The position numbers were made by a program, and so were the translations under genes. A DNA stretch of 52,878 bases, taken from contig MEQL01000013.1 in assembly GCA_001770205.1 (NCBI GenBank), positions 1 through 52,878 of the forward strand, given 5' to 3'. The notes under the pieces were generated by a model, which did not search any database, was not told where the DNA came from, and saw only the letters and a list, made by a program, of their open reading frames with translations. Shown here one piece after another: positions 47,186-52,878 of the stretch (the first letter of the stretch is position 1; each line of letters begins with the position of its first letter). This DNA comes from Bdellovibrionales bacterium RIFOXYD12_FULL_39_22. GTDB taxonomy: Bacteria; Bdellovibrionota; Bacteriovoracia; Bacteriovoracales; Bacteriovoracaceae.

Positions 47186-47275
47186 GGAGAATTGGCCGAG
47201 TGGTTGAAGGCGCACGCTTGGAAAGCGTGTAACGGGGAAACTCGTTCGTGGGTTCGAATCCCATGTTCTCCGCCA
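47186..47275 (+). tRNA. tRNA-Ser (GGA)
   Basis: GGAGAATTGGCCGAGTGG...CACGC-TTGGAAA-GCGTG, long variable arm, GGTTCGAATCC, G discriminator, CCA. Confidence 0.97.
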
Positions 47276-47328
47276 TTTTTAATCCAACTATTTATTAAGA
47301 TTGAATTTTTTCTCAAAAAATTTTTGAG

Positions 47329-47427
47329 CTGTCTGGTTCTGTCTGGTTCGTCTCGTCAAACAGATGTCTCCGACACAATGAAACCAAAGAAAGCTGTCTG
47401 GTCAAACCAGACAGCTTGACCAGACAA
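47329..47427. repeat. five (C)TGTCTGGT motifs (3 direct, 2 inverted): integrase arm-type sites, including a 12-bp palindrome
   Basis: 47329-37, 47339-47, 47394-402 direct; 47406-14, 47419-27 inverted; aagctgtctggt-caa-accagacagctt at 47391-47417. Confidence 0.8.
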
Positions 47428-47435
47428 CTGCAAAA

Positions 47436-48695
47436 TCATTGATCACTAGACGGTGATGGCACCAACGTTAGTCGTCTAACGTTGTTTTCATCTTGCGGAT
47501 TTTCTCCGCTCAATGTTGCCATAAAGCGCTCAACATCATTTACCGCCTTTCTATTTGCCTCGCTAGGCATAGCTGCGTAATGCTGAACCATCTTAATGTC
47601 CTTGTGTCCAGTGACGGCCTGTGCCGCATCTAAGCTTCCCGTCACTTTGCGCGTAATGGTTCCCATCGAGTGGCGCATGATGTGAGTTGCGCTATACTCT
47701 GGAAACAATCCGGCCTTTTTCAAAGCATGGTTAAACTGATATTGTATCCGACGATACACGAGAGGTTCTCCCTGCTCATCTCTAAAAACAAATCCACTCG
47801 TTCTCTTCCCGATGCTTCGTTGCAAAATCTCGAATAATCGATCATTCATGGAAACAAATCGAATCTTTCCGTTTTTTGGCATAGACTTTAGGTAGTCAAA
47901 CTTCTTGGTAGATCTCGCCCACACCGCAACATTTTTAACAGTAATGATACGCTCTTTAAAATTAACGCTCTCAACTTGCAGGCCAGCCACTTCTCCAACT
48001 CGTCCGGCCATGTAAAACTGAGTTTCGGCAAAGTCACGCCACTCTTGTGGCAACTCCTTAAAAAAGGCTAGAACTTCTTCTGGGCGCATCTTTTTATTCC
48101 TATGAGGAAGTGGTTTGATTTGCCCAATAGTCCGATGACGCTTCAAAACAGGGTTAATAAAAAACGAGTCGTAGTTTTCACGATACCAATTGAAGATGGC
48201 CTTCAAGTATTTCAACACGCTATCAAAATTATGACGGCGCTTATGATTTTTGATAACATCTTCTCTGTGCCTGGCCATGAAGTCATCAAGTAGTGTTGCG
48301 TTGATATCGACCATTTTATAATCAAACAACGGCCGAAAAAAATCCACTACTGCCATATAAGTATTTCTCGTCGATTTTTCCAGTGCGTTAATGTGCAGCT
48401 CTTTGTAAAGCTCCCACACATCACGAAAATAGTATCCAAGGTCTTCACCATTTTTTCTAGTTGTCCTTTTAATTGCCAACTGTTCAAGGATACCCTCTTT
48501 GCAGATGTTTTTCACGACCGTTTCTGGAATTGATGGATGAAAATTGGCCTGCCAGGTGATAGCGTCCCGAAGATTGTCAAACTTCTTGGAGTACTCCTTG
48601 TTGTCGATATACTTGATGGCCAAGTACCTTCCATTTAACAAGTCTTTTTTTATTCCTTTGTATTGTGTTAGTTTTTTGTAACGATGGTCTTTCAT
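47436..48695 (-). CDS. tyrosine recombinase / integrase
   Basis: GR.GEV.GL, PKNGK.R, H.MRHS, GH.DI.M..HY catalytic set intact; ATG overlaps the upstream stop. Confidence 0.96.
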   Translation of the reverse strand: MKDHRYKKLTQYKGIKKDLLNGRYLAIKYIDNKEYSKKFDNLRDAITWQANFHPSIPETVVKNICKEGILEQLAIKRTTRKNGEDLGYYFRDVWELYKELHINALEKSTRNTYMAVVDFFRPLFDYKMVDINATLLDDFMARHREDVIKNHKRRHNFDSVLKYLKAIFNWYRENYDSFFINPVLKRHRTIGQIKPLPHRNKKMRPEEVLAFFKELPQEWRDFAETQFYMAGRVGEVAGLQVESVNFKERIITVKNVAVWARSTKKFDYLKSMPKNGKIRFVSMNDRLFEILQRSIGKRTSGFVFRDEQGEPLVYRRIQYQFNHALKKAGLFPEYSATHIMRHSMGTITRKVTGSLDAAQAVTGHKDIKMVQHYAAMPSEANRKAVNDVERFMATLSGENPQDENNVRRLTLVPSPSSDQ

Positions 48696-48952
48696 ACTTT
48701 TCCTCCTCCCAAGATCCAATTAAGGATCTCTCTTGGAACAAAAAATAAAATCCCACCTATTTTCCTTTTCGGAATCTTCTCATCTGAAGCAAGGTTGTAG
48801 ATGTGCCCTACTGAACACTTCAAAAACTTTGCTACGTCTTCTGCTCGCCATATTTGTTTGTTAAAGAGCTGTCCATTATCTTGCGACTCGGACGACTCAC
48901 TATATCGCGAAGCACATACTTTGTAATCTAGTTCTAAAATATTTTCACTCAT
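48692..48952 (-). CDS. excisionase-like HTH (HTH_17/MerR-type) protein
   Basis: W...DVA.FL..S...IY.L....KIP..KIGG...F....I..WI. Confidence 0.85.
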   Translation of the reverse strand: MSENILELDYKVCASRYSESSESQDNGQLFNKQIWRAEDVAKFLKCSVGHIYNLASDEKIPKRKIGGILFFVPREILNWILGGGKV

Positions 48953-49157
48953 AAATAAACTCCCCAAAAAATTGCTCTCCTTACTAATCTCACCACTGCT
49001 CCTGAATAAAATTGAATCTGTCGATTTATAATTTGCTTAGAGAGAACACAAAAACATCATGGCATGACTTAAATACAACCCCGGTGTCCTACAATAATCT
49101 TAGCCTCTCTTCGATATAAAACATCATATCCTCACTCCTCTTTTTCTCTCTCCCCAT

Positions 49158-49397
49158 TCAAATTATTAAATCTCTTCTAATCCATAACATTATCTCCTTT
49201 GGAATTTCTTCCACTCTTCCCCGGCCCAAATCACCACTAAAACCTGGCAATAGGTAAGCAACTTCTTGACCATACCCATCCAACTTGGTGGGAGGGGGAT
49301 GGTCAAGAATTGCGAGCCGATAATTGCCGAAAATAATTGGTGAAGATTGGCCGGGGGAATTTAATATAATCCAAGAGTGGCCAAAGAGTGGACACAC
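49158..49397 (-). CDS. hypothetical protein (uncertain)
   Basis: 79 aa ORF co-oriented within the element; GTG start, no recognisable motif. Confidence 0.3.
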   Translation of the reverse strand: MCPLFGHSWIILNSPGQSSPIIFGNYRLAILDHPPPTKLDGYGQEVAYLLPGFSGDLGRGRVEEIPKEIMLWIRRDLII

Positions 49398-49410
49398 ATT
49401 GGAACGTTAC

Positions 49411-50115
49411 TTAAATCTTAAATAAATCACTGAACGATTTTTCTTTTTGCTTATAAAAACCAACTGCCTTACTCAAATCGCATTCCGTAGTCGATAACGT
49501 ATTATCGTAAACAATCACAATTTTTTCCTGCACCTTATCGCTTGATTCTTGCAAAACTTCGCAATAGGTGTCATAGAGCCCACGCTTGTTGGTGAAGTAG
49601 ATGCAGTACTTAGAAGAGTAGCTGTCAGTACCATTATAAAATTTTCCGCTTATGCGCGACCTGCTTTTCTGAGTCAGCTCAACCTCAATGTCTAGCTCCA
49701 CTGACTTGTCATTTGACAACCAAAATATTTTTGCATCAGGGTTGTAATGCTTAGAATATCCCTCATAGAAAATTGTGCAGTCAGTAAATTTTCCAGTGGC
49801 GATCATCGCACGCAGCACCACACCCATCGTCAAATCGTGCATCACACATGCGTCCGTTAACTCATGACCTAAGGCCAACCCTGACCACTTGACTCCCTTG
49901 TTGGTAAGGAAGATGTGCTTGGTCTGGTTGCCGACAAAGGCACTCTTGATGAGACAGGCCGTCTCCAGCTTTCTAAGTTTTTTTAGAAAGTTGTTGTAGG
50001 TGAGCTTGTCACTCAACATATCAAACAGCGTTTTGCAATCCAAAATTCTCCACTGTGCAATGTGGTTTAGGATGTCGACATAAACACCCTCCGGAGCAAA
50101 ATAGCACTTCCTCAT
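49411..50115 (-). CDS. replication-relaxation family protein (wHTH + PD-(D/E)xK fold)
   Basis: L.KLE...LI, LT.KG, HD, PDA, IEVELTQKS..R...K; ATG at 50115 overlaps the upstream TGA (alternative GTG at 50163). Confidence 0.78.
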   Translation of the reverse strand: MRKCYFAPEGVYVDILNHIAQWRILDCKTLFDMLSDKLTYNNFLKKLRKLETACLIKSAFVGNQTKHIFLTNKGVKWSGLALGHELTDACVMHDLTMGVVLRAMIATGKFTDCTIFYEGYSKHYNPDAKIFWLSNDKSVELDIEVELTQKSRSRISGKFYNGTDSYSSKYCIYFTNKRGLYDTYCEVLQESSDKVQEKIVIVYDNTLSTTECDLSKAVGFYKQKEKSFSDLFKI

Positions 50116-50297
50116 ATAACACCAATCCTTTGGGATAGAGTGAGCTGAACTAACAAGACGCACCTATCCCCTAAAATCTCCTCTGGAAGGCGAGGAGGGC
50201 CTCTTGAATGTTTTTTGGCTGCGGCCAGACAACTATATGGCCGCCACCAGAATTTTCTTTTAATGCTGGATAAAATTTTTAAGTAAATCGTGCTCAT
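50112..50297 (-). CDS. 61-aa basic hypothetical protein
   Basis: AAGGAG RBS; MSTIYLKILSSIKRKFWWRP...; ATGA overlaps at both ends. Confidence 0.55.
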   Translation of the reverse strand: MSTIYLKILSSIKRKFWWRPYSCLAAAKKHSRGPPRLPEEILGDRCVLLVQLTLSQRIGVI

Positions 50298-50419
50298 AGA
50301 TGACTCCTTTTTGTGGCAAAATATTTTTGCCCTCTCATTAAGGGGAAAATGGCCAGGGGTTTTGTAGATAATTGTCTGAAACTCCAGCAATTCAACTTTT
50401 TTTTGCTCTGATTTTTCAT
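50294..50419 (-). CDS. 41-aa repeat-encoded micro-ORF, copy 1
   Basis: GGAGG RBS; MKNQSKKKLNCWSFRQLSTKPLAIFPLMRGQKYFATKRSHL; ATGA overlaps at both ends (my own translation, below the ORF-track cutoff). Confidence 0.5.
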   Translation of the reverse strand: MKNQSKKKLNCWSFRQLSTKPLAIFPLMRGQKYFATKRSHL

Positions 50420-50610
50420 ATTAAATTTCCTCCGAAAAATTGTGTTAAAATTTTTTCTCCTCTCACTAATGGGATAGCGCCTGGGTGTTTTATAGATAAT
50501 TGTTTGAAACTCCAGTAGTTCAACTTTTTTCTGATCTTTTTTTTCATGTTAAACTTCCTCCGAAAAATTGTGTTAAATTTTTTTCTCCTCTCATTAATGG
50601 GATAGCGCCT
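50324..50610. repeat. imperfect tandem repeat, 128-bp period, ~2.2 copies
   Basis: tagataattgt at 50365 and 50493; cctccgaaaaattgtgttaaa at 50429 and 50557; cctctca(c/t)taa..gg three times. Confidence 0.92.
50416..50547 (-). CDS. 43-aa repeat-encoded micro-ORF, copy 2
   Basis: GGAGG RBS; MKKKIRKKLNYWSFKQLSIKHPGAIPLVRGEKILTQFFGGNLI; ATGA overlaps at both ends. Confidence 0.5.
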   Translation of the reverse strand: MKKKIRKKLNYWSFKQLSIKHPGAIPLVRGEKILTQFFGGNLI

Positions 50611-51243
50611 ACCTGTTTTGAATTTAACCTATTGATAATTTTGAAAATGCGGTTAGATTTTAGTTTATCTATTCCAGTTTTTTCGACACGGTGAAAGCAT
50701 TGTTATATTTCATCAGCGCATATGCTTGCTTTGAGAATAAATGTTGCTCTCATTAGTTTTAGTACCCATTATTGCGAAAATCTCACGGCCCAAATTTAAA
50801 AAAATGCAAATATCCAATGATTCTAAGAGGAAGTAATAGAAAATAGTTTTATGAATTGATCGCCGCGGGGCCAATTTCAAGGCCCAAAGCGGCGCAGTTA
50901 CGAGATTATAAGAAGTTAAACCTGCACAATTCTTTTACAGAGTATGTAATTGTGGACATGAAAATATTTTTTCCAGGAATCGGCTTCGATTCGCATGCTA
51001 CACTCAGAAACATAGACGATTTATGAGTGTGTTTTGAATATCGAAAAACATCAGTTCTGGGACAATATCGGATAATAGATTTTGCGCGGAAAAGCGAACT
51101 TTTCTGAGTAAGGTCACGAAAACTGAGAAATAATGGGTATTGCCCAGATTTTTAATATTAGGTTTATGAATTTGAATATAGAGGTATTATGGTAGTGTCT
51201 AACAGGAGTTCAAAAATTTCTTAGATAGACAGCTTCCGGGAGT

Positions 51244-52095
51244 ATGAAAATGCGTGTAAGTATCTTGCTACTAGCAATGCTAACAATTAATAATGGCTTT
51301 GGCGCAACACGTGAGCTTGATTTTGCAAAACAGATGATGATTGCTTATGTAACAAATGCTTCGTCTAGCATTGATTTCATAAACAAATTTCCCGAGGTTA
51401 ATGAAACGGTTTCTAAGTTCAGAGCTGCAATTAACGAAGATCTAAATATTTTAACAGTTGATTGTCCAGCAGGAAAAATTGCTTTTGTAAACAACGACGA
51501 TTCAATATCGTACAACAAGGAAGGAAAACTGCAAATTCATATTTGTAGAGAAACGCTCAAAACTTCCGCTGAGGAAATTGCACAAACATTGATTCATGAA
51601 TTGATACATTTAATCGACCATGATCCAGAGGAAGAATCAACAACAAAAAAAGAGTTGCTTATTGTCTATTTCGGTGGTGGTGCTCCAAGCCTCAGCTATA
51701 TGCAAGATTTTCCGATCAACGAAGTAAGTATCGAAGAGGTTTTAGATACTGAAGAGTATCGTTGGCTCAAAATAATTGGGATTGATACAACGGATGATTT
51801 TTTGATCGCTCTGGCCCGCAGTTATGCAATAACTGGTTACTCGAAGAGAATTCAAAAAATACTTTCAAGTTTTGGTTCTCGAAAAAATATTGTCCTTAAT
51901 TTCCAAGATAATCTTGGCCAAACACCAATAATGCTTGCAATTCGTGAGGGGAATATTGATTGCGTAAAGGTTCTTCTTGAGAATGGTGCGAAGTTAGATT
52001 TGAAATCAAACAGTGGAGAAACAGCGCTTGGAATCGCTAAAAAATACCAGAGATCTGAATCTCTAAAGCTTCTAGAGCGTTATACTACTTTTTAA
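51244..52095 (+). CDS. exported protein with an HExxH zincin-like domain and C-terminal ankyrin repeats
   Basis: Signal peptide; QTLIHELIH...EE; D..GQTPIMLA..EG...CVKVLLENGA, GETAL.IA. Confidence 0.8.
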   Translation: MKMRVSILLLAMLTINNGFGATRELDFAKQMMIAYVTNASSSIDFINKFPEVNETVSKFRAAINEDLNILTVDCPAGKIAFVNNDDSISYNKEGKLQIHICRETLKTSAEEIAQTLIHELIHLIDHDPEEESTTKKELLIVYFGGGAPSLSYMQDFPINEVSIEEVLDTEEYRWLKIIGIDTTDDFLIALARSYAITGYSKRIQKILSSFGSRKNIVLNFQDNLGQTPIMLAIREGNIDCVKVLLENGAKLDLKSNSGETALGIAKKYQRSESLKLLERYTTF

Positions 52096-52144
52096 ACCAC
52101 TAGGAATATGAGCAGTCAAATAATATAATCGCAAGGAAAAAATG

Positions 52145-52167
52145 AAAAGGGCCGCTTGGCCCTTTTT
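52145..52167. terminator. bidirectional Rho-independent terminator
   Basis: aaaagggcc-gctt-ggcccttttt between convergent genes. Confidence 0.82.
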
Positions 52168-52213
52168 GTTATTGGATGAGTTTAAACACACCGATTAATG
52201 AGTCTACTCCGAA

Positions 52214-52585
52214 CTATGCCACTGCGAGCAGTAACTCATCATAATTTGATTTTAGTTCTTGGGCCGTGCCTCGTGTATTAGAAATTTCTTTTATCGAAAT
52301 TAACCCAATTTCCTTGAGTAAAATAACGTCACGATGAACGGCGCGAAACTCTCTATCTAATAATTTGGCCAGGGCCGAAATGGATTTTGGGTGGAGGTCA
52401 CGAATGGCCCTCCATACCTCCAATCTTTTATCGGTCAAAACTTTTCTGACGGCAGCTAGAGATTCAAAGGTGGTATTTTTTGAAAACTTTTGGCGTTTAT
52501 GTTTTTTGTCAAAATCTTTGGCCGCTTTTAATAAGTCATCGTTGGCCTGTTTTTTATCAAGTATTTCGATTTTCATTGTTTTCAT
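52214..52585 (-). CDS. HVO_A0114-like wHTH DNA-binding protein (putative antitoxin)
   Basis: FES....KVLT.KRLE....I....P.SI..LA..L.R....VH.DV..L...GLI; GGAGG RBS. Confidence 0.85.
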   Translation of the reverse strand: MKTMKIEILDKKQANDDLLKAAKDFDKKHKRQKFSKNTTFESLAAVRKVLTDKRLEVWRAIRDLHPKSISALAKLLDREFRAVHRDVILLKEIGLISIKEISNTRGTAQELKSNYDELLLAVA

Positions 52586-52790
52586 ATTTTATTACCTCCG
52601 TATTCTCTAATTTCAAAAAATCTGAAATTAAGGTTTCTGCGTCTTTAAAGTTATACCTGGACTCATTTCCCTCGGAATCATGACGATGATGTCCTTTGGG
52701 AAAGTGGTTATCAAAGAGAACTAAAACTCTTCCAGTAATTGGATTTGCTAATATCAACCTGTATTTTATCCCGTCTGGATATTTACTAGT
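52557..52790 (-). CDS. DUF6516 (TumE-like) putative toxin; 5' end unresolved
   Basis: SKYPDGIKYRL.......VL.FDNH.PKGHHRH....E..Y.F.....L..DF; the frame stays open to the window end without an ATG. Confidence 0.75.
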   Translation of the reverse strand, partial: TSKYPDGIKYRLILANPITGRVLVLFDNHFPKGHHRHDSEGNESRYNFKDAETLISDFLKLENTEVIKYENNENRNT

Positions 52791-52878
52791 AATACCAATT
52801 ATGTAAAATAAAAGTGGGCCAAATGTACTAAGTTTGCTAAATTTTTCGGATGGAAAATTTAAAAGATTTAGTAAAAAA

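Follow-up and report, generated by a model that had tools for sequence, protein, structure and literature searches.

The closest described counterparts of the protein at the centre of this locus are relaxases of the MOBC type, such as TraX of pAD1 and MobC of CloDF13 (Pfam Replic_Relax, PF13814), in which a winged helix is combined with a PD-(D/E)xK domain. TraX, the prototype of the family, reportedly has a winged helix at its N-terminus and binds five direct repeats that lie 70-120 bp from nic (PMC12857230), and one account of MOBC systems has the mating-pore operon on one side of their oriT and the relaxase gene on the other (bioRxiv 10.64898/2026.01.13.699239). A DEE motif is reported for the family (PMC6736028), and relaxases of the PF13814 type have been equated with MobC in a survey that also describes the streptococcal IME_Class_8 elements, with serine integrases, a gene order of relaxase, excisionase and integrase, and a VirD4-type coupling protein just upstream of the relaxase (Coluzzi 2017, PMC5357655). 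The locus considered here is part of a stretch of 52,878 nucleotides from Bdellovibrionales bacterium RIFOXYD12_FULL_39_22, hereafter the window, and it matches these systems in several respects. The window protein has the same winged helix and PD-(D/E)xK arrangement with an invariant D..E.E..K set, its relatives are linked to genes for VirD4/TraG-type coupling proteins just as MOBC relaxases are, and direct repeats adjoin the relaxase gene. Unlike the short binding repeats of MOBC systems, however, the repeats of the window are 128-bp units that include an SD and an ATG. The window also shares the gene order of IME_Class_8, and its protein's relatives share the upstream coupling protein, but its integrase is a tyrosine integrase and it has no coupling protein of its own. 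Moreover, five of six extended relative loci also contain T4SS-like genes, so that, unlike IME_Class_8, they look like ICEs.

Other known systems bear on the array of repeats rather than on the relaxase. Some mobilizable islands have promoters that answer the activators of their helper, as SGI1 does with AcaCD and the MGIs with SetCD. The window resembles them in that a putative hitch-hiker bears copies of a cis element that also heads conjugation loci of the same genome, and differs in that the shared element includes an RBS and start codon and is repeated in tandem. Leader peptides and translationally coupled uORFs, as found in attenuation and uORF systems, likewise place short ORFs with their own SD before a gene, with stop/start overlaps between them. 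The window has all of these features, but its peptide and frame are not kept in the sister locus, and it shows neither a stalling motif nor an alternative RNA pairing. Iteron origins consist of short, multi-copy repeats, and the combination of an initiator with several short direct repeats is not present in the window. The reading that we favor, with a probability of about one half, is that the array represents a duplicated non-coding regulatory leader of the relaxase gene and not a peptide factory.

The gene downstream of the array (49411..50115, minus strand) encodes 234 aa from its ATG. Residues 1-82 align with winged helices of the MarR/HxlR/TubR type at Z scores of 10-11.7 (VIA-align), the profile of the protein matches TubR at E 6e-4, and the predicted structure (AF2 pLDDT 88.6) returns the nucleases FokI, PaqCI, EcoT38I and MspJI from Foldseek with probabilities of 0.87-1.0, along with MarR/PadR/TubR. 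In a wide VIA-align search the winged helix filled the match list, so that this search is uninformative on the nuclease domain. Residues H93, D94, D127, E144, E146, K150 and Y184 are invariant in 26 sequences, and the protein combines an N-terminal winged-helix domain with a PD-(D/E)xK catalytic domain whose metal ligands are acidic. Judged from its sequence and predicted structure, it is probably a distant relaxase of the MOBC/Replic_Relax type. A first-pass annotation of this DNA had called the gene "replication-relaxation"; a relaxase-type protein it does appear to encode, but one only distantly related to Replic_Relax. The name has no direct Pfam hit behind it: the window protein does not match PF13814 even at E 10, nor in a genome-wide search for the family. 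Among its relatives, 6 of 26 aligned sequences match PF13814 at E<=1 (best 2.2e-4), and of 35 representatives sampled from those found with the family profile, three pass the curated cut-off of 25.3 bits (26.4, 30.0 and 31.9 bits) and one falls below it. The family profile itself finds 1065 cluster representatives at E<=1e-3, and 103 of the 237 genomes of the host's bacterial family carry such a relaxase. MOBC-like relaxases with a winged helix and a PD-(D/E)xK domain thus form a large branch, most of which escapes Pfam.

These relaxases are tightly tied to the gene for the coupling protein. In 26 of 34 homologous loci an ORF for a coupling protein terminates no more than 30 nt from the start of the relaxase gene, with fragments in three more, and in most of the loci with a coupling protein the upstream frame runs 1-7 nt beyond that start. 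Two example coupling proteins carry the Pfam domains TraG-D_C, TrwB_AAD_bind and T4SS-DNA_transf, and in two representatives coupling protein and relaxase are fused into a single protein. The gene order in five of six extended loci is T4SS-like genes, coupling protein, relaxase, SSB-like, excisionase and integrase. The fold of the relaxase and its genomic company are established by these findings. The linkage to coupling-protein and T4SS genes holds for the family and not for the window, in which such genes are absent from 47.2 to 52.9 kb.

What the window does contain is a small mobile element next to a tRNA-Ser (GGA) gene at 47186..47275 on the plus strand (ARAGORN; Rfam tRNA, 53.7 bits), which is the likely integration target. 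Five copies of CTGTCTGGT, three direct and two inverted, lie at 47329..47427 between the tRNA and the integrase gene and are candidate recombinase-binding sites; a pattern search gave four exact matches and one with a single mismatch there, the remaining 6 of its 11 hits being one-mismatch matches scattered in the window. The tyrosine integrase (427 aa; 47436..48719, minus strand) matches Pfam Phage_integrase at E 9e-20, and it is preceded by a gene for an excisionase-like HTH protein of 91 aa (48692..48967, minus strand; Pfam HTH_17 at E 1e-6, TIGR01764 excise weakly), homologues of which adjoin integrases in related loci. From 47276 to the end of the window there are thus an integrase, an excisionase and a relaxase with no T4SS or coupling-protein gene, which is the gene content expected of an integrative mobilizable element. 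On this gene content the element is a stripped-down relative of the ICEs, apparently a minimal derivative in which the relaxase, excisionase and integrase alone have been kept. Searches for attR found no repeat of the 3' half of the tRNA or of its flank (at least 11 nt) near 51041 or rightwards to the contig end at 52878, and the CTGTCTGGT cluster is confined to the integrase side. The six frames of the region upstream of the relaxase gave nothing significant when searched with profiles for the coupling protein and for the regulator gene discussed below. An origin from an ICE by internal deletion is accordingly an idea without direct trace in that region, which weighs against the leader reading. 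The contigs of four sequencing runs, searched for copy-number or excision variants, gave only the same sequence and its paralogues, and none of the listed runs containing this DNA is recorded as an RNA run. One contig present in two runs departs from the window at 47283 into sequence that could not be located in the genome, and no empty site can therefore be inferred.

Between 48000 and 52878, Tandem Repeats Finder detects a single array, at 50319-50610 (period 128, 2.3 copies, 85% matches, score 426), and a separate repeat search returned identical units together with three copies of a 53-nt sub-block at 128-nt spacing. Read on the minus strand, unit 1 (50292..50419, core at 50331-50345) contains a micro-ORF of 41 aa at 50294-50419, unit 2 (50420..50547, core at 50459-50473) contains one of 43 aa at 50416-50547, and a partial unit 3 (50548..50627, core at 50587-50601; ...GAIPLMRGEKNLTQFFGGSLT) supplies a further SD and a terminal ATGA. 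Both micro-ORFs begin with ATG, and GGAGG stands 9 nt 5' of both ATGs. They are followed by an ORF of 61 aa from its ATG (50112..50297, minus strand), which has AAGGAG 6 nt 5' of its start, a stop that overlaps the relaxase ATG, and GC-rich hairpins, as read from the sequence, at 50221-50245 and 50178-50197. ATGA stop/start overlaps at 50544-47, 50416-19, 50294-97 and 50112-15 link these frames into the 234-aa gene. The first-pass annotation had described the tandem repeat, the two micro-ORFs, the partial third copy with three core occurrences and the four overlaps, and on all of these points, including the coordinates of the overlaps, our analysis agrees with it. The four junctions and the strong SDs are all intact in the window, and one unit has two stop-free sense frames, which shuffled sequences rarely give; these observations count against the leader reading.

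While the repeat itself is far beyond chance, its open frames are only mildly so: among 20,000 shuffles of a single unit, at least one sense frame was free of stops in 6% (mononucleotide) to 19% (first-order Markov), and two or more of the six frames were in ~2-8%. Nothing sets the peptide frame apart within the array: a second sense frame is also without stops in both full units, and on the opposite strand the array is covered by ORFs (32, 48 and 64 aa) that overlap. Duplication of such a unit with a period of 128 nt (3n+2) automatically gives rise to a chain of short ORFs with ATGA junctions.

Comparison with the rest of the genome indicates where the unit is likely to have come from. Each unit includes an element of ~60 nt made up of the core CCCATTAATGAGAGG (CCCATTA(A/G)TGAGAGG), an A/T tract, GGAGG and ATG. 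With at most one mismatch, the core occurs seven times in 3.95 Mb: three times in the window, twice on contig C19, and once each on contigs C18 and C27. Six of the seven sites have it 21-25 nt upstream of GGAGG or AGGAG and an ATG. Conservation within the array is highest in the cores and SD segments, which match C18 and C27 at 76-97%, the core segment of C27 being 97% identical over 34 nt. On both of these contigs the stop of a Sigma70_r4 gene overlaps the core, and a conserved gene of 55 aa follows. Further along the C27 locus come TrbC/VirB2, VirB4-like, CagX and TrbI, then a coupling protein, a protein of 262 aa and a large serine recombinase. An hhalign comparison of the 262-aa protein with the relaxase profile (E 6e-5) brings the HD, PDA and ExE..K motifs into register, and the core lies ~9 kb upstream of this relaxase-like gene. 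In other genera, homologues of the regulator gene are followed by related junctions that share this layout. These matches show the core to be common, at the level of sequence, to the array and to conjugation loci. Because the ~60-nt element heads conjugation loci elsewhere in the genome, the SD and ATG of the unit are probably inherited from a genuine gene start.

The non-coding DNA on either side of the array is constrained at the nucleotide level. A related element on C19 is homologous to the window between sharp limits at 49160 and 51041, and it carries the only sister array known; that a single array from the same genome is available for comparison is a further point that counts against the leader reading. 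A search of metagenomes yielded two loci whose sequences are identical to C13 and C19. Between the two elements the flanking non-coding blocks share 88-90% of their positions, compared with 67% at the third codon positions of the relaxase gene. They are thus more conserved than those positions, which points to cis-acting DNA. One block lies 3' of the relaxase gene (49160..49410, 89% identical, with a 22-nt inverted repeat at 49263-49309). A 79-aa ORF within it was considered as a gene and rejected, its C19 counterpart having two stops. The other block lies upstream of the array (50700..50901, 90% identical, with a GC-rich hairpin at ~50861-50895), and part of it (50742-50894) is also present on C45 and C49. 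The shared module is closed by a 140-bp element (50902..51041) with copies of 83-90% identity on five contigs (C19, C50, C49, C36 and C31). The relaxase is under strong purifying selection relative to C19 (dN/dS 0.11, dS 0.82). For the 61-aa ORF, by comparison, dN/dS is 0.84 with a dS of only 0.15, and its region is 89% identical in nucleotides to C19. The nucleotide match to C18 covers only the first ~25 nt of this ORF, and BLASTP of its product against the 55-aa gene of C27 gave zero alignments. The most fitting interpretation of its region is as leader DNA or other conserved non-coding sequence.

If the array is indeed a duplicated leader, we suspect that control DNA derived from the head of conjugation operons has been placed before the relaxase gene of a small mobile element. 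A conserved non-coding region of ~0.9 kb, with the tandem duplication at its centre, occupies the place upstream of the relaxase where most relatives have coupling-protein and secretion genes. The ~60-nt element, which at conjugation loci stands between the gene for a sigma-70-region-4 regulator and the first small gene, may serve as a control region for transcription and translation. The relaxase would thereby come under the same signals as the transfer genes of the helper, and a hitch-hiker with no machine of its own would be expressed when the helper is active. Extra copies of the unit may add or tune such control sites. The ATGs of the units may well be used by ribosomes, and the final frame before the relaxase could help to bring these to the relaxase start, much as the coupling-protein gene may do in relatives, while the peptide sequences themselves would be without function. 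The short cis element offers a concrete candidate site both for the ties between hitch-hikers and helpers and for the binding of MOBC-type relaxases.

The main rival to this interpretation holds that the cores are binding sites for the relaxase within an oriT, with the winged helix binding the repeats and the nuclease nicking at a distance, perhaps in the hairpins at 50221-50245 or 50178-50197 or in the inverted repeat at 49263-49309. The precedent of pAD1 TraX, with its N-terminal winged helix and five direct repeats 70-120 bp from nic (as described in PMC12857230), speaks for this reading, as does the location attributed to the MOBC oriT between mating-pore operon and relaxase gene (bioRxiv 10.64898/2026.01.13.699239). 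The array is directly upstream of the relaxase gene, with three cores in the window and two on C19, and the adjoining hairpin-bearing DNA is constrained at the nucleotide level. We nevertheless think an oriT function of the cores unlikely. Their fixed distance of 21-25 nt to an SD and ATG in six of seven sites is a better fit to expression control, two to three units of 128 bp do not resemble the five direct repeats of pAD1, and the C27 core is ~9 kb from the relaxase-like gene there. The proteins of the two loci are also remote (E 6e-5), although the core segment is 97% identical.

It is likewise unlikely, in our estimation, that the array is merely a functionless by-product of neutral tandem duplication in an element that is decaying, although several observations would fit such a history. 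Within the module, conservation is lowest in the repeat region (78% identity to C19 with 150 gap columns), and copy number differs between the two elements, with 2.3 units in the window and about 1.5, or one unit fewer, on C19. The integrase of the C19 element is split, C49 retains only a truncated relaxase remnant, and a 128-bp array was found in 0 of 34 homologous relaxase loci when Tandem Repeats Finder was run on these loci and the window. Against neutrality, the cores and SD segments are the parts of the array that are best kept and match C18 and C27 at 76-97%. Furthermore, with the relaxase under strong purifying selection and the array flanks conserved at 88-90%, the module as a whole is not decaying.

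A more elaborate form of the leader interpretation can also be imagined, in which the hitch-hiker captured the operator-plus-RBS segment that heads the transfer locus of a helper ICE and amplified it in tandem as a graded sensor. The cores would be bound by Sigma70_r4 proteins or by the relaxase, ribosomes would be handed down the ATGA chain to a weakly initiated relaxase gene, and copy number would set the strength with which relaxase synthesis responds to activation of the helper. We regard this complete scheme as improbable.

The first-pass annotation had proposed that the units encode an expandable array of basic micro-peptides, or form a leader-peptide relay controlling replication or excision of the element; in a relay, ribosomes would terminate and restart at each ATGA and so control translation of the relaxase. 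Such a system would have been striking, and it can draw on the strong SDs, the ATGs and the four intact overlaps, on the overlap of an upstream stop with the relaxase start that is a habit of the family, and on the fact that C19 retains one micro-ORF with SD and ATG as well as a frame ending on the relaxase ATGA. The peptides, however, do not behave as conserved products. Between units 2 and 1 there are 24 differences in 105 nt, which fall on codon positions 1, 2 and 3 without bias (7, 10 and 7), and in the peptide frame they amount to 3 synonymous versus 17 non-synonymous codon changes; units 3 and 2 differ by 0 synonymous and 5 non-synonymous changes. Amino-acid identity between units 2 and 1 is 18/35 in the peptide frame, whereas another sense frame is better kept at 24/34. 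Frameshifts and stops in homologous repeats were among the observations named in advance as telling against the peptides, and the C19 array contains both: two 1-nt indels shift the frame, and the micro-ORF ends after 20 codons with a stop at codon 21. The SD and ATG of the 61-aa ORF are absent there, and the chain is broken, the micro-ORF stop lying ~100 nt short of any relaxase-reaching frame with its own SD. A tblastn search with the peptides, a check that the annotation had suggested, covered 39 loci and the whole genome and recovered them only on C13 and C19, while C18 and C27 gave no more than fragments of the core. Among 5.8 billion proteins the 43-aa peptide has no relative except itself, and the small proteins have no meaningful match in Pfam or NCBIfam. 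These comparisons show micro-ORFs with no sign of protein-level constraint. Adding the dN/dS of 0.84 for the 61-aa ORF and an account of the SD and ATG by descent from a real gene start, we consider functional peptides or a relay very improbable; the evidence points instead to something ordinary, a relaxase gene whose control region has undergone tandem duplication. The term "expandable" suits the DNA, whose copy number differs between the two sister elements. The annotation's other suggestion, that the repeats are DNA sites, fits much better with a core that heads conjugation loci and with the non-coding conservation, except in its iteron version. That the units are iterons of a replication origin with the 234-aa protein as initiator is hardly credible, for although direct repeats adjoin the gene of a DNA-binding protein and the Pfam name "Replication-relaxation" hints at a role in replication, the protein is a nuclease-type relaxase whose relatives are accompanied by coupling proteins and T4SS genes, a search of 72,556 plasmid records found no homologue of it, and 2.3 units of 128 bp are unlike the short multi-copy repeats of iteron origins.

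Signals in the leader DNA itself were also sought, and the outcome weighs against the leader reading. No promoter stands out, with 9 promoter-like sites against 6.6 +/- 2.5 expected, and neither promoter nor terminator counts rise above those of shuffled sequences or include anything compelling. The 601-nt leader shows no unusual RNA stability (z 0.04), and no consensus RNA structure emerged across 13 junctions. Rfam has no family for the array, and the tRNA alone passes its thresholds. A sub-threshold match to PK-repBA (E 0.026; 24.9 bits against a cut-off of 45 bits) falls at 49261-49338.

The best-supported reading of the array is that its micro-ORFs are by-products, and that the array itself would be a tandem duplication of a cis-acting leader. 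That the DNA carries a tandem repeat with an SD and an ATG in every unit is real: Tandem Repeats Finder reports a single array within 48000-52878 (50319-50610; period 128, 2.3 copies, 85% matches, score 426), and a second repeat search recovered the same units, with a 53-nt sub-block in three copies 128 nt apart. On the minus strand, micro-ORFs of 43 aa (50416-50547) and 41 aa (50294-50419) lead into a 61-aa ORF (50112-50297, from its ATG) and the 234-aa gene (49411-50115, from its ATG), and the ends of these ORFs place all four ATGA stop/start overlaps where the first-pass annotation had put them. GGAGG lies 9 nt ahead of each unit ATG, and AAGGAG 6 nt ahead of the 61-aa ORF start. Because 128 is of the form 3n+2, a unit without stops between its ATG and the following unit's ATGA yields such a chain whenever it is duplicated. 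The open frames of the units are only mildly unusual, since at least one stop-free sense frame appears in 6-19% of 20,000 shuffles of one unit. Both full units have a second sense frame that is likewise stop-free, and on the plus strand the array holds three overlapping ORFs (32, 48 and 64 aa).

Allowing at most one mismatch, a search for the core CCCATTAATGAGAGG returned seven sites in 3.95 Mb, of which three lie in the window, two on contig C19 and one each on C18 and C27, all of the same genome. At 6/7 sites the core stands 21-25 nt ahead of GGAGG or AGGAG followed by ATG. On both C18 and C27 it overlaps the stop codon of a gene for a 156-164-aa Sigma70_r4 protein and is followed by a conserved 55-aa gene, whose product has the motif WRRWEY in both, and then by a second Sigma70_r4 gene. 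C27 continues with TrbC/VirB2, a VirB4-like ATPase, CagX, TrbI, a coupling protein, a 262-aa protein and a large serine recombinase; the 262-aa protein matches the relaxase profile (E 6e-5), with HD, PDA and ExE..K motifs in register. The array matches the C27 locus at 97% of nucleotides over 34 nt and the C18 locus at 76% over 93 nt. Regulator-gene homologues occur in 16/237 genomes, several of them followed by a related junction in the same order (core, A/T tract, SD, start codon), which in one genus is a long inverted repeat extending into the SD. From this layout and these matches, each unit inherited its SD and ATG from an authentic gene start, one that stands at the head of conjugation loci. 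The cis element common to the array and those loci is one of two main points of interest here.

As a control region, the leader would make expression of the relaxase follow the cues that turn on the transfer genes of a helper. We give this role about an even chance (roughly 0.5), favoring it because the spacing from core to SD and start codon is fixed and because the core is placed at the heads of conjugation loci. A promoter scan gave no clear promoter, the array region has no Rfam family, the RNA stability of the leader is not unusual, and no consensus RNA structure was found. The main rival holds that the cores could be relaxase-binding repeats of an oriT. It has a precedent in TraX of pAD1, which is described as carrying a winged helix at its N-terminus and as binding at five direct repeats that lie 70-120 bp from nic (PMC12857230, PMC6736028); according to a preprint (bioRxiv 10.64898/2026.01.13.699239), oriT in MOBC systems is kept in the interval that separates the mating-pore operon from the relaxase gene. 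We consider this rival rather unlikely.

A control region is also to be weighed against neutral duplication. The sole sister module in the genome lies on C19 and matches 49160-51041 at ~84%, with identity of 39-46% past 49160 and past 51041. Conservation within the module is lowest in the array (78% identity, 150 gap columns), a point in favor of neutral duplication, which we nevertheless hold to be rather unlikely. Around it, identity is 89% in the 61-aa ORF region, 90% at 50700-50901, 88% in a 140-bp element at 50902-51041 and 89% at 49160-49410, as against 67% at relaxase third codon positions; the non-coding DNA flanking the array is thus constrained as DNA or RNA. GC-rich hairpins are present in the conserved blocks (50221-50245, 50178-50197 and ~50861-50895), and the block downstream of the relaxase gene contains a 22-nt inverted repeat (49263-49309; 86% complementary, 3-nt loop). 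Contig depth, when summed, is raised over that same stretch, and in two sequencing runs there are other contigs with breaks at 49285 and 49317, so this piece is common to other community sequences. Contigs of the four examined runs showed no copy-number or excision variant, and none of the listed runs containing this stretch is recorded as RNA.

The headline proposal of the first-pass annotation, a functional micro-peptide array or relay, is very probably wrong, as the C19 sister has frameshifts and an early stop, the outcome named beforehand as refuting it. In this single sister comparison, the alignment gives C19 exactly one unit fewer and two 1-nt indels inside its units, a micro-ORF stops after 20 codons (MKKQSIKKLNCWNFRQLQRN*), and the counterpart of the 61-aa ORF has neither SD nor ATG. 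The units themselves look no more like coding sequence: unit 2 differs from unit 1 at 24 positions over the first 105 nt (77% identity), distributed 7/10/7 over codon positions 1/2/3 of the proposed frame, with 3 synonymous and 17 non-synonymous codon changes and 18/35 peptide residues identical, and the alternative open sense frame is better kept (24/34). Unit 3 against unit 2 adds 0 synonymous and 5 non-synonymous changes. When the peptides were run by tblastn against the whole genome and 39 loci, hits were confined to C13 (the window), C19 and, as short fragments of the core, C18 and C27; among 5.8 billion proteins the 43-aa peptide matched only itself, and the 61-aa ORF matched itself plus a 47-aa form from which 14 residues are deleted in frame. 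Between C13 and C19, dN/dS is 0.11 for the 234-aa gene (dS 0.82) and 0.84 for the 61-aa ORF (dS just 0.15), and the C19 counterpart of a 79-aa ORF lying downstream of the relaxase gene is interrupted by two stops. A peptide or relay function is accordingly very improbable, and that the units are iterons is more improbable still.

The 234-aa protein can be read as a putative distant MOBC-like relaxase, a likeness rather than demonstrated family membership. The AlphaFold model from a 26-homologue alignment (mean pLDDT 88.6) matched in Foldseek the nucleases FokI, PaqCI, EcoT38I and MspJI and the winged helices MarR/PadR/TubR; VIA-align aligned residues 1-82 with MarR-type winged helices (Z 10-11.7), and the family profile matched TubR in the PDB at the sequence level. 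H93, D94, D127, E144, E146, K150 and Y184 are invariant in the alignment. These matches and residues suggest the reading because reviews describe MOBC relaxases as PD-(D/E)XK enzymes with a DEE motif (PMC12857230, PMC6736028). The original label of a replication-relaxation gene holds for some relatives, with Replic_Relax matches in 6/26 at E<=1 (best 2.2e-4); the window protein itself matched nothing in Pfam or NCBIfam, and a genome-wide PF13814 search found nothing. Coluzzi et al. (PMC5357655) treat PF13814 as equivalent to MobC-type relaxases. The family profile finds 1065 representatives at E<=1e-3, and 3/35 sampled from those it found pass the curated Replic_Relax cut-off; this large relaxase branch, mostly missed by Pfam, is the other main point of interest.

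Relaxase homologues occur in 103/237 genomes of the bacterial family, six in this genome, and in none of 72,556 plasmid records. At 26/34 homologous loci the end of a coupling-protein-like frame lies no more than 30 nt from the relaxase start, which that frame usually overlaps (full coupling-protein genes are ~460-530 aa, and some frames are cut by the edge of the 1.4-kb region examined), and three further loci have fragments. Two examples scanned against Pfam gave TraG-D_C, TrwB_AAD_bind and T4SS-DNA_transf. The order in 5/6 extended loci is T4SS-like membrane genes, coupling protein, relaxase, a ~130-aa gene, SSB-like, excisionase and integrase, and two representatives, P0063 (724 aa) and P0106 (627 aa), are coupling-protein::relaxase fusions. 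In both, a TraG/VirD4-type coupling protein is joined to a C-terminal winged-helix/PD-(D/E)xK relaxase domain.

The object in the window is a minimal integrative element of a known kind, with a MOBC-like relaxase and a duplicated leader. It comprises tRNA-Ser, five CTGTCTGGT repeats, a tyrosine integrase, an HTH_17 excisionase and the relaxase, with no coupling-protein or T4SS gene; its far end was looked for and not found. The repeats (three direct, two inverted; 47329-47427) lie between the tRNA-Ser and integrase genes and nowhere else in the element, and are likely candidate recombinase-binding sites. Possibly the element arose from an integrative conjugative element by a deletion that extended from the first small gene as far as the 3' end of the coupling-protein gene; a search for a direct trace of internal deletion found none. 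At L022, a locus in genome G109, the coupling protein 5' of the relaxase is reduced to a 122-aa C-terminal fragment adjoining a 24-nt tandem repeat (1.9 copies), another reduced derivative of the same element type. The C27 stretch at ~9.6-24 kb (loci L077 and L078) is a compact conjugative element, with a 202-aa gene between the 262-aa and large serine recombinase genes.

The C19 element has a different excisionase from that of the window, and its integrase is split into 130-aa and 202-aa ORFs with no tRNA nearby (locus L041, 4823-6059), so that this copy may have lost the ability to excise. P0001, a relaxase on a 4477-nt contig, equals the window copy in its N-terminal part and the C19 copy in its C-terminal part, and may be a recombinant or an assembly chimera. 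Beside it lies P0005, the 47-aa version of the 61-aa ORF; the 14 missing residues include one arm of the 50221-50245 hairpin.

The 140-bp element has a sharp outer boundary at 51041 and 83-90% identical copies on C19, C50, C49, C36 and C31; on C50, C36 and C31 it has no relaxase gene close by and adjoins small secreted-protein or toxin-antitoxin-like genes. A ~95-bp element (51069-51170) just upstream of the ankyrin gene has copies of 76-87% identity on at least 15 further contigs, often two or more on one contig, and may represent either a repeat dispersed through intergenic DNA or a promoter region that these loci share. The ankyrin gene (51244-52095) encodes a 283-aa secreted-looking protein in which Pfam finds ankyrin repeats at the C-terminus and, weakly, a SprT/M76-like HExxH region; the protein looks effector-like. 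The gene pair at 52214-52877 is truncated where the window ends and probably forms a toxin-antitoxin module (HVO_A0114, E 6.5e-20; toxin TumE, E 1.4e-7). The terminal ~90 bases (52788-52878) recur at the ends of C42, C49, C28, C33, C57, C47 and C51, probably because the assembly breaks there at the edge of a multi-copy element.
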